Source: Felis catus (taxonomy: Eukaryota). From it: DNA of 64,000 nt. The notes under the pieces were generated by a model. It did no database searches and had not been told where the DNA came from. It was given only the letters and a program-made list of their open reading frames with translations. Shown here in pieces: positions 20,650 through 53,263 of the stretch. Location of the stretch: the NCBI RefSeq assembly GCF_018350175.1, contig NC_058368.1, positions 3,720,001 to 3,784,000 of the forward strand. Direction: 5' to 3'. How positions within the stretch are numbered: the stretch's first letter is position 1; the number at the start of each line of letters is the position of its first letter. The position numbers were made by a program, and so were the translations under genes.

Positions 20650-20980
20650 AATATGGATAAAATGTGAAAATGATGCTCCGTATCGTTAGCCATTAGAGAA
20701 ATACAAATGAAACCCACAATAAGATACAAAATACATGGAGAAAAAGCTGACAGACTGACGAGAGAAATGGACAATTCAGCAATAATATGGGAGACTTTAA
20801 CATAGCACTTACAATAATGAATAGAGCAACTAGACTAAATACCAAATAGGAAGTAGAATACTTCAATCGACACTGTAAAGCAACTAGTCTCAAGGTAGAG
20901 CACGCCCCCAACAACAAGCACCGGAACACGAATTCTTCTCAAGGGCACATGGAACATTCTCCAGGATACACCATATGTTA
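20650..20980 (+). mobile_element. L1 ORF2 remnants (host of the provirus; continues at 25040-25090)
   Basis: ggagactttaaca...cacatggaacattctccaggata endonuclease-region phrases. Confidence 0.8.
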
Positions 20981-21684
20981 TGAAGCCTCCTCAGGCCCTC
21001 TGGCCAACCCAGTAGTGTACAAACTTTTCTTGGACCGCCTGATCAATGAACTAAACCTTTCTTTGCATAACTACAGACCATGCATTCTGTCCTAGAGAGA
21101 CCAGAGCACTTTTGCACATCATCGGGCTTTCTTGCACAACCTCCCTTGGGCACCAAGAAACCAGAACCTCTTGCACAACCTCCAAGCACTGAGATAACTC
21201 TGTCACTGGCATCCTTGAGTCTTCACGAAATCAAGAAAGGTTGCAGACCACAGCACTTCCATAACTGATTAAGTGGCTTTAAGAGTCTCTGGGCCAGGGG
21301 CACCTGGGTGGCTCAGTCAATGAAGCACCCGACTCTTGGTTTCGGCTCAGGTCATGATCTCACCATCATGAGTTCAAGCCCTGCACTGGGCTCTGTGTTA
21401 ACAGTGCAGAGCCTGCTTAGGATTCTCTCCCTCTCCCTCTCTCTCTCTGCCTTCTCCCGCTCATGTACCCGAGTGCTCTCTCTCTCACTCTCTCTCAAAT
21501 AAATAAACATTAAAAAAAAAAAAAAAGTCCCTGGGCCAGACAGGAATGGTGGAGTTGACCTGGGAATAAGAGTCTGCCTTCTCAGATGGCTGGTCTCCTG
21601 AATCAAGCTCATGTTCCTTTCTCGTCAAAACTTGGCTCTTGAGAATTGGCCTTCAGAGTGAGCTGAACTTGGGTTTTGGTAACA
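20981..21684 (+). mobile_element. 5' LTR of provirus (interrupted by SINE at 21297-21525)
   Basis: Starts TGAAGCC and ends GGTAACA. Collinear with 24485-25039 (shared aaacctttcttt, catgcattct..cctagagaga, gcactgagataact). Confidence 0.9.
21297..21525 (+). mobile_element. CAN-SINE in 5' LTR
   Basis: TSD agtc(t/c)ctgggccag. Confidence 0.96.
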
Positions 21685-21688
21685 AATT

Positions 21689-21706
21689 TGGCAAATGAGC
21701 CAGGAG
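21689..21706 (+). promoter_or_regulatory. Primer binding site, tRNA-Arg-like
   Basis: TGGCAAATGAGCCAGGAG begins 4 nt after the LTR end. It matches 14/18 to TGGCGAGCCAGCCAGGAG, the recalled complement of the tRNA-Arg(ACG) 3' end. Confidence 0.7.
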
Positions 21707-22212
21707 AGCTACCACGCCACGCTTGGATGGGCAAAACCGCGGGACCTGCAGCGTGCCAGGGCTGACTCTTTGCTTCGGGACGAGTCATTCTGATGGTCAA
21801 GGGAGACCCGCTGCTCCATGCCGGTTGGCCCTGGAAGGGAGCCTGGGAGGACTGACCAGTCCCGCAGCTGCCAACACTGTTTTCATCTCAGAGAATCTCC
21901 CTGATGATTCCTAAGCTACCTACACCAACTGCCAGTCTGGCATCTTGGTTTCGGTGACAAGGAAAGGAGGACTTGGGAAAGCCCATGAGCTTCCGGACGG
22001 GGTAAGTCCCTCAGAGTGCCCAACGCGCCCCTGCATGTTTCTCATTTGTAAAGCACTGGGTGCTTCTGTTTTGTTGCTCTTACTTTTTCCCATTAGAAAG
22101 GCATGGCTTTGGGGAGAAACTAAAAGGGACCTGAATAATGGTCACTCTATTTGGCATCTGGAACAGATCTATTTTGGTGGGGGTGGGTGGCGTTGTGTTA
22201 AATTTTTGTACA

Positions 22213-22343
22213 ATGGGAGGTTCTACCTCTGTCTCACCAACAGCCCACTGGGTCGTATTTTGAATAAATGGAAAGAATATAACCAGAAGCTCACAATTAA
22301 GAAAAGGATGACGTTTTTACTGTAACACAGCCTGGCCTATGTA
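22213..22343 (+). pseudogene. gag: ERV gag matrix remnant, copy 1
   Basis: MGGSTSVSP /fs/ NSPLGRILNKWKEYNQKLTIKKRMTF /fs/ YCNTAWPM* matches the class I ERV MA motif SPLGxILxxW...KKxxxFxCNTAWPxY. Confidence 0.85.
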
Positions 22344-22445
22344 GATCAATGAGCCCCTCAATTTGGGGGAAGAACAAACGGTCACAGATTCGTCTTGTTA
22401 TGATTTTGTTTCTCCTGGGTTCTTCCCGAACTTTCGCCTAGGAAG

Positions 22446-23250
22446 ATGGGGACTACTCCTTCTGTTCCCAAAGAAAGCCCATTAGGACATATTTTAAATA
22501 GGGGCACCCGGGTGGCTCAGTCAGCTAAGCGACCAACCTTTGATTTCAGCCCAGATCATGGCCTCACAGTTCAGTTTGTAAGATTGAGCCCCATGTCGCG
22601 CTCTGTGCCGAAATCGAAGAGTCTGCCTGGGATTCTCCATCTCCATCTCTCTCTGCCCCTCCCCCCACTCTCTCAATAAATAAATAAATAAATAAACTTT
22701 TGAAAAAGGACACGTTTTGGGCGCCTGGGTGCCTCAGTCGGGTAAGCATCCACCTTCGGCTCAGGTCATGGTCTCGTGGTTCCTGAGTTCGAGCCCCACG
22801 TCGGGCTCCACTCTCGGTGCACAGCCCGCTACAGATCCTCTGTCTCCCTTTCTCTCTGCCCCTCCCCAGCCGGCACTCTCTCTTTCTCTGTCTCTGCCAA
22901 AATTACATGGTGCAAAGACCTAAAAAGAGTCCGAGAAAAAAACCTGTTCTGCAGGAGGGAGAGGCAGGAGACAGAGATAAGGGAAGGGTGTCCTTCGAAC
23001 TTTTTAAATCCACCTGCACTCTTGGTGGCAACACCCTGCCAGCTCTGCCTCCCCTCCCCCTCCGCTGGTTCCCACAAGGCCAAGGCCGAGGCTCCCATAA
23101 CCAGCTCCAGTGCCGACCTGGGTCCTCAGGCACCACAGGCTCCTCCTCTCCTCTATGTCAAGGAGCTCCAAGCACCTCAAGCCGTTAGGCCCCCTCCTGA
23201 GGAGGTTCAAACCGAAGGCCTCCCAAATCAGCATGAGGGGCCCGGGGCTC
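22446..23250 (+). pseudogene. gag: ERV gag remnant, copy 2 (MA start, two SINE insertions, proline-rich p12-like segment)
   Basis: MGTTPSVPKESPLGHILN is followed by SINEs, then a C-rich, proline-coding stretch at about 23000-23220. Confidence 0.75.
22501..22895 (+). mobile_element. Two tandem CAN-SINEs in gag (22501-22705; 22718-22895 lacking its A-tail)
   Basis: The second SINE follows the partial right TSD (aggaca..tttt) of the first. Confidence 0.93.
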
Positions 23251-23276
23251 CCCTGGATTGAAACTGCCCACTTGAG

Positions 23277-23362
23277 ATTTCCCCACAGGAGCCCTCCGGA
23301 AAACTGACTTCAGGGAACAAATTGATCGACTTTCGGGGGACGCAGGTGTAGCATATTTGGTA
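23277..23362 (+). pseudogene. pro: ERV protease remnant
   Basis: ISPQEPSGKLTSGNKLIDFR /fs/ DAGVAYLV resembles the gamma-type protease N-terminus EPxVxLxVGxxxIDFLVDTGAxYSV. Confidence 0.75.
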
Positions 23363-23583
23363 TCAAAGCTAATTTGAGTTGGTTGGGTTCATTAAATCAG
23401 ACGTGTTTCTAGAGTGATTCACTCTAAATATAAACATCTTTATTCTACCAAGGTTTGCGAAAGGTCAAATAAGCTCATGTTATTTCTGTTGTAATTTTGC
23501 TGGCAAAAGATGGCTTACAATGATTAATTTTGTCTCATAGTGTTCTCATGAGTAATCGCTGGGACCACTTTTAACATCTTTGA

Positions 23584-23850
23584 GGGGCGCCCGGGGTTGG
23601 TCAGTCGGTTGGTTAAGTGTCCAACTCGTAGTTTCAGCTCAGGTCATGATCTCACGGTCTGTGGGTTCAAGCCCTGCATCGGGCTCCATGCCAACAGTGT
23701 GGAGTGTGGAGCCTGGAACCTGCTTCAGATTCTGTGTCTCCCTTTCTCTCTGCCCCTCCACAGCTTGAGCTTTCTCTCTCTCTCTCTCACTTTCTCTCTC
23801 TCTCTCTCTCCCTCTCTCTCAAAAATAAATAAACATTATTTTTTTTTAAA
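23584..23850 (+). mobile_element. CAN-SINE in provirus
   Basis: Head, long (CT)n, tail. Confidence 0.94.
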
Positions 23851-23868
23851 TCTTTGGGAACTTGAAAC

Positions 23869-24059
23869 TTTTTTTAATATAATTTATTATCAAGCTGGCT
23901 TGTTCATTTTAGCCACTCTGACTGGTGTGAGGTGATATCTCAGTGTGGCTTTGATTTGTATTTCCCTGATGAGGAGTGATGTTGAGCATCTTTCATGTGT
24001 CTGTTGGCCATCTGGATTCTTCTTTGGAAAAGTGTCTATTCATGTCTTCTGCCCATTTC
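23869..24059 (-). mobile_element. Internally deleted feline L1 fragment inside the provirus
   Basis: 23869-23899 is the reverse complement of the L1 terminal signal plus A-tail. 23900-24059 closely matches L1 ORF2 at 49549-49710. Confidence 0.8.
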
Positions 24060-24311
24060 ACAGAACTTACATATCCCATAAAACAGTGCTGTGTATATGT
24101 CCCAAATTACTCAAAAAATATAACTGAAGTAATGAAAGATTTAGGTAAACACATCATAGCTATAGATGTAGATACCTTTAGCAATTGGCTAAATTCAATA
24201 CCATCCAAATGGAAGTATACAATACTAAGCATTGCTATGTTTCTTGTTCTCGTTGGTTGTTGTTTGATTTTTCGCATCTTGTCAAGCAGGAGCTGGCACT
24301 ATTCATACTAG
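24060..24311 (+). pseudogene. env: ERV env TM C-terminal remnant
   Basis: QCCVYVPNYSKNITEVMKDL...FSNWLNSIPSKWKYTILSIAMFLVLVGCCLIF: CC motif, N-glycosylation sequons, W-rich membrane-proximal segment and hydrophobic anchor, just upstream of the 3' LTR. Confidence 0.85.
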
Positions 24312-24484
24312 CTTGGAGATGCCCCCTTCAGTGGAAAAGCTGGAAACAAGAGTCTCCAACTGTGTAAGAGTCCTTCCATCCCAAACTCCCTACATTGTCC
24401 CTGATCAGCAGAAAGTGGACACAGAAGATGGACCTTTGCCCCTAATTCCACAGATATGGAATGATGAGATTGACAGTGGGGAAT

Positions 24485-25039
24485 TGAAGCCACTGCCTTG
24501 GCCCCTCTTGCCAACCTAGTAGTCTTTATACTTTAGCGAGCACTCTGAGCCTATGTGATCGACGAATTAAACCTTTCTTTGTATACCTATAGATCATGCA
24601 TTCTTTCCTAGAGAGAACAGAGCACTTCTGCTAGTCACCAGGCTCTCTCACACAACCTCTCCTGGGTCCCAAAGAACCAGACTATCTTTCACAACCTCCC
24701 CCAGTTACCGAGGAACCGAATCGTCTATGCGCTGCCCCACCCCCAGGCACCAAGGAACTAGGACTTCTTGCAAAACCCCAGAGCACTGAGATAACTTTGT
24801 AGCTGGCATCATTGAGTCTGCTGTAATCAAGAAATGTCACAGGCCACTGAACTCCCTTCACTGATTAAACCCCTTAATATCTCTGGGCTAGGCAGAAATG
24901 GCTTTTGGACAATAGTCTGCCTTCTCCCCAAGTGGCCAGCCTCCTGAATAAAGCTCCTATGCCTTTTCAATCAAAACTCACCTCTTGAGTATTGGCCTCA
25001 ATATTGAGGGATGGGTAGCCAAATTTGGGGTTAGTAACA
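24485..25039 (+). mobile_element. 3' LTR of provirus
   Basis: Follows gacagtggggaat. Starts TGAAGCC, has AATAAA at about 24947, ends AGTAACA. Confidence 0.9.
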
Positions 25040-25119
25040 GCTGGACTATAAAACGAGCCTCAATACATGTGAAGGGATTGAAATTATGGAAGTAAACCAT
25101 AATGGTATCCTTCCCTATA

Positions 25120-49148: not shown

Positions 49149-51378
49149 TTTCACTTAGCATAACACTCTCCAGTTCCATCCACATCGCTACAAAAGGCCA
49201 TATTTCATTCTTTCTCACTGCCAAATAGTATTCCATTGTATATATAAGCCACATCTTCTTTATCCATTTGTCAGTTGATGGACATTTAGGCTCTTTCCAT
49301 AATTTGGCTATTGTTGAAAGTGCTGCTATAAACATTGGGGTACAAGTGCCCCTATGCATCAGCACTCCAGTATCCCTTGGGTAAATTCCTAGCAGTGCTA
49401 TTGCTGGGTCATAGGGTAGATGTATTTTTAACTTTTTGAGGAACCTCCACAGTTTTCCAGAGTGGCTGCACCAGTTTGCATTCCCATCAACAGTGCAAGA
49501 GGGTTCCCGTTTCTCCACATCCTCGCCAACATCTATAGTCTCCTGAGTTGTTCATTTTAGCCACTCTGACCGGCGTGAGGTGGTATCTCAGTGTGGTTTT
49601 TATTTGTATTTCCCTGATGATGAGTGATGTTGAGCATCGTTTCATGTGCCTGTTGGCCACCTGGATGTCTTCTTTAGTGAAGTGTCTATTCATGTTTTCT
49701 GCCCATTTCTTCACTGGATTATTTGTCTTTCGGGTGTGGAGTTTGGTGAGTTCTTTATAGATTTTGGGTACTAGCCCTTTGCCCGATATGTCATTTGCAA
49801 ATATCTTTTCCCATTCGGTCAGTTGCCTTTTAGTTTTGTTGATTGTTTCCTTTGCAGTGCAAAAGCTTTTTATCTTCATGAGGTCCCAATAGTTCATTTT
49901 TGCTTTTAATTCCCTTGCTTTTGGAGATGTGTCAAGTAAGAAATTGTTGCAGCTGCGGTCAGAGAGGTTTTTTCCTGCTTTCTCCTCTAGGGTTTTGATG
50001 GTTTCCTATCTCACATCCAGGTCCTTTATCCATTTTGAGTTTGTTTTTGTGAATGGTGTGAGAAAGTGGTCTAGTTTCAATCTTCTGCATGTTGCTGTCC
50101 AGTTCTCTCAGCACCATTTGTTAAAGAGACTGTCTTTTTTCCATTGGGGATATTCTTTCCTGTTTTGTCAAAGATTAGTTGGCCATACTTTTGTGGGTCC
50201 AGTTCTGGAGTCTCTATTCTATTCCATTGGTCTATGTGTCTGTTTTTATGCCAATACCATGCTGTCTTGATGATTACAGCTTTGTAGTAGAAGCTAAAGT
50301 CTGGGATTGTGATGCTTCCTGCTTTGGTTTTCTTCTTCAATATTACTTTGGCTATTTGGGGTCTTTTGTGGTACCATTCACATTTTAGGATTGCTTGTTC
50401 TAGCTTTAAGAAAAATGCTGGTGCAATTTTGTTTGGGATCGCATTGAATGTGTAGACTGCTTTGGGTAGTATTGACATTTTAACAATATTTATTCTTCCA
50501 ATCCATGAGCACGGAATGTTTTTCCATTTCTTTGTGTCTTTTTCAGTTTCCTTCATAAGCTTTCTATAGTTTTCAGCATACAGATCTTTTACATCTTTGG
50601 TTAGGTTTATTCCTAGGTATTATATGCTTCTTGGTGCAATTGTGAATGGGATCAGTTTCTTTAGTTGTCTTTCTGTTGCTTCATTGTTAGTGTATAAGAA
50701 TGCAACCGATTTCTGTACATTGATTTTGTATCCTGCGACTTTGCTGAATTCATGTATCAGTTCTAGAAGACTCTTGGTGGGGTCTATCGGGTTTTCCATG
50801 TATAATATCATGTCATCTGCAAAAAGTGAAAGCTTGACTTCATCTTTGCCAATTTTGATGCCTTTGATTTCCTTTTGTTGTCTGATTGCTGATGCTAGAA
50901 CTTCCAGCACTGTGTTAAACAACAGCAGTGAGAGTGGGCATCCCTGTCGTGTTCCTGATCTCAGGGGGAAAGCTCTCAGTTTTTCCCCGTTGAGGATGAT
51001 GTTAGCTGTGGGCTTTTCGTAAATGGCTTTTATGATGTTTAAGTATGTTCCTTCTATCCTGACTTTCTCGAGGGTTTTCATTAAGAAAGGATGCTGAAAT
51101 ACGTCATATAGAGAAAGACAGATACCATATGTTTTCAGTCTTACGCGCATCCTGAGAAACTTAACAGAAGACCATGGGGGAGGGGAAGGAAAAAAAATTA
51201 GAGAGGGAGAGAGCCAAACCATAAGAGACTCTTAAAAACTAAGAACAAACTGAGGGTTGATGGGGGGTGGGAGGGAGGGGAAAGTGGGTGATGGGCATTG
51301 AGGAGGGCACCTGTTGGGATGAGCACTGGGTGTTGTATGGAAACCAATTTGACAATCAATTTCATATTTTAAAAAAAA
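49149..51378. mobile_element. Young feline L1, 5'-truncated and 5'-inverted (ORF2 on minus 49149-51097; 3' end and poly(A) on plus 51096-51378)
   Basis: Minus-strand ORFs match L1 ORF2 RT and C-terminus ([48 protein letters not shown]). The plus-strand part is the L1 3' UTR with AATAAA-like signal and A-tail. TSD aaaagcagttttcact (49140-49155) / aaaaggcagttttcact (51375-51391). Confidence 0.95.
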
Positions 51379-51391
51379 GGCAGTTTTCACT

Positions 51392-53263
51392 ACAGAGTGC
51401 CCAGGGAACAGTGATCAGCAGCAGTCCCAAAATGAGAGAGATGGTGGCACTAATGGCCAGCGACCACAGCTGCCGCCAGCAAGCCTTCCTTCCTTGGCAC
51501 TCACAGTGCCAAGTGTCCCCACAAGCATCACCATCATCAAAACCATGGCTCTGACACCTGGCACCTGGCCCTGCCACTCTCTGGGCTACTGAAGTGGCCT
51601 CTTCACCAGTCATGGTGAGCAACCCAGCCACTCAAACACCTGCAGCTGCCCAGGTGAGGATGTCCATCTCTTCTGATGTCCACACGTCCACCCATCCTAT
51701 CACTTAGGTGCACACATCAGGGACTATGATAATGGCCCGGCAAAGCCAGGTAGCGACCACGCTGGTAGGTGGGGTCATCAAGGCCACCGCCCTGGTGAAA
51801 AGCCCCATCTCTATCCTGGGAGGCGGCGCTCTGACTTGCAATCTGGGCAAAGTGACGTTGGTAGTCCGGATCAAAGGGTCCCTTTCAGCTGGGACCATCC
51901 TGAAGCTGGGGACCTCAGCAGATGGCAAGCCCATCACCATCATCAGTGCCATGCGAGCCAGTGGGGCTGGGACTAAGCCCATCATCCTGGCCATTCCGGC
52001 AGGCCAAGCCCAACACAACACCATAATCGAGACCATCCCCATACCAGCCGCAGGCGGGACCAGCAGTCTCGACACCACGTCCCTTTTCACCACCATCATC
52101 ACCAAGGTGATGACTTCAGGAATGGGAGCACCCACCGAAATCACTGCTGCTGTTCAAAATGCCACTGGCCATGAGAAGCACGGAGTGACCCAGGTGGTGC
52201 TAAAGAGGGTCCCTGGACAGCCAGGCAGGCACTATCCTCTGCTCCGTGCCCGTTGAGGGGTGTTCACCTGGTCACAACTGTCGCCGTCTCCACCATCAAG
52301 CCAGCCGTCACCGTGTTGATCATGAAAAGCGGCCCAGATGTCACAACCCTCGGCAGAGGGACAGGCAGCATTCCCACCAGCCTTGCAGAGCTGCGGGCCA
52401 CCGCACCAGAGCCTCCCTGGCCCATCACTACCGTGGGCACCATTGCCATCCCTTCAAGCCAGGTGATCAGCCCCCACTGCTGTCACCGTGCTGGTTGCAC
52501 AGACCACGGTGATGAGGGTTGGTGATGAGGGTGCACCATTGCCACCATCACCATGCAGCCTATCTCCCAGCCTACCCAGGTGCCTCCAATCACAGTGCCC
52601 ACGGAGGTCAAGTCCAGCCTGTGCATGACCTTCTTGTGTCCGTTCTAGCCTCGCCTACGACACAACAGCCCATGGCCGGTCACCACGGCTGACTTGGTGC
52701 AGGGTAACGTGTAGCCCGGGACGGTGTCACGTAGCCTGGCACTGAGATGCCGGTGGGCTACAACCCACCCTGTGAGACCCATGAGACAGGCACCACCTAC
52801 ACCCCCCCACCACCACTGGGGGTTGTGGGCAAGCCTGAGGGTAGGTAGCAGCTAGCTTCCTGCCCACCACCCCTGTGAGATGCACCAGACCACTTCCATC
52901 GGTACCAACATATCAGTCGGCCCTGGTGCCCTGCTCCCTGATACTCTCCTCTCCCACAGTACCCTCAAGTCCAGCTTGAAGGTGGCAGCACAACTTATTG
53001 TCACCCCCAGGCCAGTGCTTCACTGCCAGCTCCTTTCTGGACACAGAGGGTATGTCTCAACCATCCTGTGAGACACACAAGACACGCACCATGCCCATGG
53101 CCATGATTGTCACCTCCAACATAAGCTCAAACAAAGATCCCCCACCATCTGTGACCAGGGACGGGTGGACAGCATCCAGGGCAACGGTGTGAACATCACC
53201 GGCCCCAGTGTCATCACATCAACTGTGTCCTTTACACAGACGTGGGCTATGACCCTCGTGATA
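51392..53263 (+). pseudogene. HCFC1: Processed pseudogene fragment of host cell factor C1 (basic region through HCF-PRO repeats)
   Basis: Translations follow HCF-1 in order: QSAQGTVISSSPKM (HCF-1 QSAQGTVIGSSPQM), [122 protein letters not shown]. Contiguous over a region that is multi-exonic in the parent gene. Contains stops and frameshifts. Confidence 0.93.

Follow-up and report, generated by a model that had tools for sequence, protein, structure and literature searches.

The stretch of DNA analysed here (hereinafter, the window) comprises 64,000 nucleotides of the Felis catus contig NC_058368.1, and the locus of interest is a small, old, heavily deleted, gamma-like provirus that spans positions 20981-25039 and retains two LTRs. 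The hallmarks of a class I provirus are present, i.e., paired LTRs, a primer-binding site (PBS), a purine tract, and a short target duplication; the interior contains a leader, two starts of the Gag matrix domain (MA), a pair of SINEs, a piece of gag rich in proline, and a TM-like end of env. The features, in the coordinates of the window, are the following:

20927..20980, + strand: left flank, with a frame that we take to be L1 ORF2-like and that resumes at 25041
20981..21684, + strand: 5' LTR (TG...CA), interrupted by a SINE at about 21297-21526; identical to the 3' LTR at 346 of 448 aligned sites
21689..21706, + strand: PBS, so placed by its position directly after the 5' LTR
22001..22007, + strand: splice donor G/GTAAGT, at the ordinary place of a major donor; a paralog (X9 record 10) aligns from 22001
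22075..22096, + strand: second acceptor-like site, with 17/20 pyrimidines followed by AG, upstream of MA1
22138..22212, + strand: upstream AUG, in frame with MA1, that opens 25 stop-free codons, the hydrophobic part of which runs up to the MA1 ATG; the same extension occurs in the proteins P0003 and P0004
22213..22344, + strand: MA1, the first ~44 codons of a gamma-like matrix, with frameshifts near 22240 and near 22317 and a stop at 22342-22344
22345..22445, + strand: spacer, of which 22389-22445 is shared with paralogs, with a probable loss of ~141 nt near its left end
22420..22441, + strand: pyrimidine tract and AG, the candidate gag acceptor; an in-frame hydrophobic stretch, interrupted by one stop, also ends here
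22446..22500, + strand: MA2, the first 18 codons of the true gag
22501..22898, + strand: two tandem SINEs; the remainder of MA2 is missing
22899..23330, + strand: gag remnant, proline-rich, p12-like, assigned by eye
24084..24284, + strand: env TM-like end, with a CC motif and a hydrophobic stretch, assigned by eye
24485..25039, + strand: 3' LTR, with the purine tract directly 5' of it

The two LTRs are about 23% apart (p 0.228, K2P 0.276), and this divergence points to an age of the provirus of tens of millions of years, an estimate to be read with the proviso that LTR-based dates may overshoot, as described for CARenvV (PMC9604959). The target duplication is of 4 nt (20977-20980 vs. 25040-25043), with two of the four positions matching; the flanking frame is continuous across it, and thus the provirus most likely represents one insertion. 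The PBS appears to resemble an Arg-type one. About 2.8 kb separate the two LTRs, SINEs included; no pol remnant was seen in this copy, and no second copy of the provirus was found within the 64-kb window. A Pfam search with the gag remnant gave no match below E 0.1, and neither a word-based protein search among longer proteins nor further searches retrieved a database match for the env-like piece. Two additional observations concern the 3' part of the element: the 3' LTR carries an 81-nt stretch of repeat-like units (24664-24745) that is missing from the 5' LTR, and an L1-like piece in reverse orientation, recognized by eye, lies at 23860-24060, inside the provirus and just before the env-like end. 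The surrounding genome is rich in SINEs, which we take to be of the carnivore type. Elsewhere in the window, a 182-codon open frame (51708-52256, + strand) without a Pfam match presumably resembles the basic region of HCFC1 and is probably a piece of a processed pseudogene, and the open frames at 49487-51231 (- strand) appear to be L1 ORF2-like.

The initial annotation had described two MA ATGs (22213 and 22446, 233 nt apart), each opening an M-G-x-x-x-S motif and paralogous yet diverged from one another. The analysis bore out this description: both ATGs have an A at -3 and a G at +4, and the two openings share 39 of 55 aligned nucleotides, with an alignment score of 47 against a maximum of 30.5 after shuffling (0/2000). 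The sequences upstream of the two ATGs, in turn, showed no significant likeness to each other (p 0.17-0.21).

Relatives of both starts were found among protein sequences. An exhaustive protein search returned two matches, one of which (P0002) was a repeat protein and was dropped; the other, P0003, is an MA1-type start preceded by the same leader, which it shares at 60%. A profile search retrieved P0005, a protein of 89 residues that reads as a whole MA and belongs to the cluster P0005-P0007, whose members are all of this length. The proteins P0003-P0007 are known as sequences alone, without names or DNA context. The likeness of MA1 is 77% with P0003 (26 residues) and 60% with P0005 (25 residues), and MA2 is identical to P0005-P0007 at 16-17 of 18 residues, against 11 for MA1 and 10 for P0003. 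MA1 and MA2 thus each have closer relatives elsewhere, and the two starts belong to two lineages existing elsewhere; both look inherited, on the basis of these comparisons, rather than made at this locus.

This bears on the possibility of a tandem duplication specific to this locus and later than the insertion. In its favour, MA1 and MA2 (71% identity over 55 nt) are not clearly less alike than the two LTRs (77%); on the other hand, each start is closer to its relatives elsewhere than to its neighbour, the sequences preceding the two ATGs are unalike, and the leader-MA1 and spacer-MA2 junctions are common to paralogs. We regard a local duplication as most improbable. The tandem MA starts are real, and they were probably borne by the lineage as a whole.

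Further searches for the MA module gave little. A DNA pattern for the MA motif matched one locus among viral contigs and 117 loci among metagenomes, and all 118 read as chance, none of them having an upstream MA; P0003 and P0005 retrieved chance-like loci only from viral and GTDB contigs. A word-based protein search with MA1, among longer proteins, found no match, the ESM Atlas yielded no usable one, and no MA was among the matches of a profile search of the PDB. The single-sequence fold of P0005 (pLDDT 45) was too poor to be used, and Foldseek and VIA-align gave nothing clear.

Paralogs of the locus were gathered at 80% likeness from four of the 24 sequencing runs listed, and they are 83-87% alike on longer pieces. 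As far as MA1 is concerned, the peptide that the initial annotation had quoted (ending in WPM and a stop) requires two frameshifts, near 22240 and 22317, and the frame that actually begins at 22213 closes after 16 codons. Both frameshifts are present in X15 record 1, a contig that differs from the window by about 1% (eight substituted letters plus a single gap, at 22000, across 21554-22338), and thus they are not assembly errors. The idea of a "short" pre-Gag protein ending at WPM was not supported either. The likeness to a paralog ends at the MA1 stop (22342-22344), an X15 loose end at the MA1 motif continues with MA-type sense codons where the window has this stop, and in another paralog the corresponding interval between the starts exceeds that of the window by 141 nt; the short ORF would thus be a product of decay, and MA1 was probably, judging from these sequences, a whole MA of ~90 codons in origin. 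Another copy of the MA1 type, X15 record 4, is free of the first frameshift. When MA1 was read through its breaks (with X at each) and compared with the PDB, the single match was the MoMLV MA (1MN8), at a weak E of 0.054; a Pfam search of the MA1 region gave no match. With two frameshifts and a stop, the MA1 ORF is not intact, and there is no sign of a host role for this dead copy. The last residue of P0003 and P0004 coincides with that of the middle MA1 frame of the window (22315-22325, in a T-run); the break may thus be shared, whether through orthology, through an old defect of the entire lineage, or through slippage that happened more than once.

MA2, for its part, retains 18 codons before the two SINEs. 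At 22484-22718, the first of them shows an apparent target duplication, into which the second SINE is inserted, and ~210 nt of MA2 are missing afterwards; the stretch that follows the SINEs gave no alignment with P0005.

As to the layout, in X9 record 10 the leader (22001-22176) is joined to the MA2 start (22454-22500) with 418 letters, listed as a length, between them, vs. 277 in the window; thus, the window copy has probably lost ~141 nt just after 22343. This contig implies a distance of ~374 nt between the two ATGs which, once the 101-nt spacer is subtracted, would leave room for 91 codons, close to the 89 amino acids of P0005 and thus enough for a whole MA. In X9 record 11 and in X15 record 2, which may represent a single locus, the leader (22179) is joined to the MA1 motif at 22315-22335; both contigs end before the MA2 position. 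Among the three long MA2-bearing contigs (X9 records 10, 12, and 13), one is listed as joined to this leader; the other two (12 and 13) extend 962 and 846 nt upstream of MA2 with no leader joint among the pieces listed (80% cut-off), and they may be single-MA relatives or may have a leader that falls below the cut-off. A further X9 joint (21847-22464) was set aside as probably spurious, one of its sides being of 24 nt. That the two MA starts are borne by the family was upheld in one part, as each start has relatives elsewhere, and not in the other, as no other copy holding both was seen among the paralog contigs. Considering the leader-MA2 spacing together with the separate relatives of each start, we judge it likely that the two-MA layout is family-wide.

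The same spacing is relevant to a different arrangement, in which MA1, the spacer, and MA2 formed one frame and encoded a single Gag with two matrix domains, with no splicing involved. The MA1 frame is indeed free of stops across the spacer after 22344, yet it is out of phase with ATG2, and the distance between the starts is a multiple of three neither here (233 nt) nor in record 10 (374 nt); moreover, MA2 has a strong start and an M-G-x-x-x-S motif of its own. Such a double-matrix Gag appears very unlikely to us.

The initial annotation had proposed a donor and an acceptor bracketing MA1. The consensus donor GGTAAGT does lie at 22001-22007 (the 7-mer occurs six times in 128 kb, both strands considered), and an acceptor-like AG lies at 22440-22441, 4 nt before ATG2, with 16/20 pyrimidines upstream. 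A donor between the PBS and gag is standard in these viruses and serves the env RNA. The donor at 22001 is thus expected anyway. Furthermore, the bracket is not unique, in that a stronger AG (22095-22096), which the initial annotation had not noted, occurs upstream of MA1, for which no change appears among the rows listed for X9 records 10 and 11. Placed 95 nt after the donor, this AG would delimit a short intron within the leader, before MA1. Acceptor-like sites of such strength are frequent: on the + strand, YAG sites with at least 15/20 pyrimidines are 104 out of 1948 (~5%).

As for the conservation of the acceptor, proposed as a check, the AG at 22440-22441 is found, among the rows listed, in four out of the five paralogs showing the site, being unchanged in X9 records 12, 13, and 14 and in one X15 loose end, and absent from another X15 loose end. 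The AG looks ancestral from this comparison; its survival in four of five copies is about what neutral decay would leave, and it speaks of ancestry and not of selection. The T-rich tract before ATG2 may also be a hydrophobic stretch of the glyco-Gag type instead of an acceptor tract. None of the four joints listed in the paralog and RNA data corresponds to 22001-22442. The two raw RNA runs, each sampled at 1-2%, contributed 8 and 2 reads, a depth that gave this comparison no power; across the donor, the X15 contig of this locus, which may be DNA, is unspliced. Overall, we consider splicing from 22001 to 22441 in this lineage to be about evenly balanced.

A further feature of the leader is the extension upstream of MA1. 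Its best 15-residue hydropathy is 1.87 here and 2.3 in P0003/P0004, which is a modest signal, given that a score of 1.8 is attained by 4.8% of random 75-nt pieces and one of 2.2 by 1.5% of them; the other leader frames score 1.59 and 1.73. The AUG at 22138-22140 is present in P0003/P0004 and shows no change among the rows listed for X9 records 10 and 11 and X15 record 2. An in-frame hydrophobic stretch, with one stop within it, also precedes MA2. The three frames of the leader carry stops and show no LGDVP motif, which decay could hide.

These data can be read in terms of a stand-alone accessory protein, i.e., a membrane-anchored leader plus MA translated from the in-frame start at 22138 or further up, which would take the glyco-Gag role (counter-defence against SERINC/APOBEC3) and leave MA2 to Gag. 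The 25 open codons, their hydropathy in the window and in P0003/P0004, and the retention of the AUG are in line with this reading; gammaretroviral glyco-Gags are characterized by a hydrophobic stretch just ahead of the Gag AUG (PMC4528783), and the glycoMA of MLV alone is reported to downregulate SERINC5 (PMC12530543). However, just ~11 residues precede the hydrophobic stretch, whereas glycoGag is described as working via its leader domain (PMC12530543), and the LGDVP motif is not visible. T/G-rich leaders, moreover, readily give hydrophobic frames, as the scores of the other two illustrate, MA1 retains its M-G-x-x-x-S motif, and KoRV is described as having such a frame, unexpressed (PMC4528783). 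We regard this reading as rather improbable.

The interpretation that we prefer, to which we assign slightly less than an even chance, is that the provirus is the dead and deleted remnant of an old gamma-like (class I) ERV lineage, itself multi-copy, that had a diverged, probably full-length (~90-codon) extra MA ahead of gag, with gag reached by splicing. According to this model, the extra MA would have been gained before insertion through a template switch between two related gamma-like genomes, which joined the leader and MA of one of them to the leader end and gag of its relative, and the recombinant lineage would then have made several copies. The unspliced RNA would have given the MA1 product, with ribosomes meeting the MA1 start first; since this start is strong and first in the RNA, Gag from ATG 22446, provided that the lineage made its own, would have come mainly from an RNA in which the major donor (22001) was spliced to the AG of 22441, in line with the proposal for the pre-gag intron of ERV-W. 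Decay would later have brought the two frameshifts, the stop, the loss of ~141 nt, and the SINEs. Whether the MA1 product was useful to the virus is a separate matter, and we are doubtful that it was. The alternative offered by the initial annotation, a recombinant carrying two gag starts, fits equally well as its pre-Gag/spliced-Gag reading.

In a related scenario, the element was functionless cargo, i.e., a recombinant of two related gamma-like ERVs, with the leader and MA of one and the gag start of the other, defective from its origin and spread by a helper virus, in which the donor and acceptor are the leader signals of the parents, and MA1 and the splice have no role. The shortness of this copy (~2.8 kb between the LTRs, SINEs included, with no pol seen) would agree with it, as would the in-frame hydrophobic stretches just before both ATGs, which two complete gag contexts would give; X9 records 12 and 13 may be the single-MA parents, and the ends of P0003/P0004, which coincide with that of the middle frame of the window, may indicate that the break is old and shared. 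Conversely, the 374-nt spacing, known from one contig, suits a whole MA plus a short spacer over a random crossover, and the AG 4 nt before ATG2 is found in several copies. We hold this scenario, the main rival of the preferred model, to be possible but not probable. A bolder reading, namely that the matrix module was duplicated in an ancient carnivore gamma-like retrovirus and that the upstream copy became an accessory gene (a myristoylated MA alone or a membrane-anchored glyco-MA), with Gag from a spliced RNA, seems unlikely to us; if true, a simple-retrovirus lineage would have had an accessory gene derived from its matrix and a gag mRNA produced by splicing. More generally, a lineage in which a diverged second MA preceded gag would illustrate how retroviruses can acquire an accessory gene, in this case through the duplication of a structural domain.

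Gamma-like retroviruses are regarded as having a single MA and as producing Gag from unspliced RNA. Long pre-gag regions (423-2000 nt) are described as general in class I HERVs, and a pre-gag intron between the PBS and gag, with a donor and an acceptor, has been reported for ERV-W, HERV9, and HERV30, spliced pseudogene copies being known for HERV-W (PMC6995185). The locus analysed here shares with the pre-gag of these groups (Grandi et al. 2020, PMC6995185) a long PBS-to-gag region (~740 nt here), a donor and a candidate acceptor, a putative ORF, and the presumed recombinant origin of one part. The extra sequence differs, in that it is pol-derived (HERVIP10) or MC132-like in those groups (bioRxiv 10.1101/2022.11.04.515135), with no homology to MA reported in the portions of text covered, whereas here it is an MA; moreover, ERV-W pre-gag splicing is backed by processed pseudogenes (PMC6995185), whereas here it is predicted from the sequence.

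Pre-gag ORFs have also been reported for HERV-V (PMC11905727, PMC12679747, PMC9514029), HERV-T (PMC5388530), HERV-H (PMC6995185, PMC7615088), and HERV30 (bioRxiv 10.1101/2022.11.04.515135); such extra ORFs are known in several class I ERVs, and their origins are mostly unclear. The pre-gagV1 of HERV-V, an element primed by tRNA-Val or His, is described as intact, conserved, and expressed in the placenta (PMC11905727, PMC12679747, PMC9514029), whereas MA1 is broken here; if pre-gagV1 is derived from MA, the tandem MA of the cat would be a carnivore instance of a layout already described. The glyco-Gag of gammaretroviruses (MLV, FeLV, KoRV) has in common with this locus an in-frame hydrophobic stretch directly before the MA start codon, but it is a CUG-started extension of a single gag frame with an LGDVP leader, whereas here there is a second MA copy, out of phase with gag and with no LGDVP (PMC4528783, PMC12530543). 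PLAC4 is an MA-only, gag-derived ORF with a myristoylation motif, indicating that a stand-alone MA-sized product can be kept; it is, however, a host-co-opted, truncated gag and not a second MA before gag, and MA1 is broken here (PMC12679747). A precedent may exist, although in the literature covered no description was found of tandem MA starts or of a second MA before gag in an ERV.
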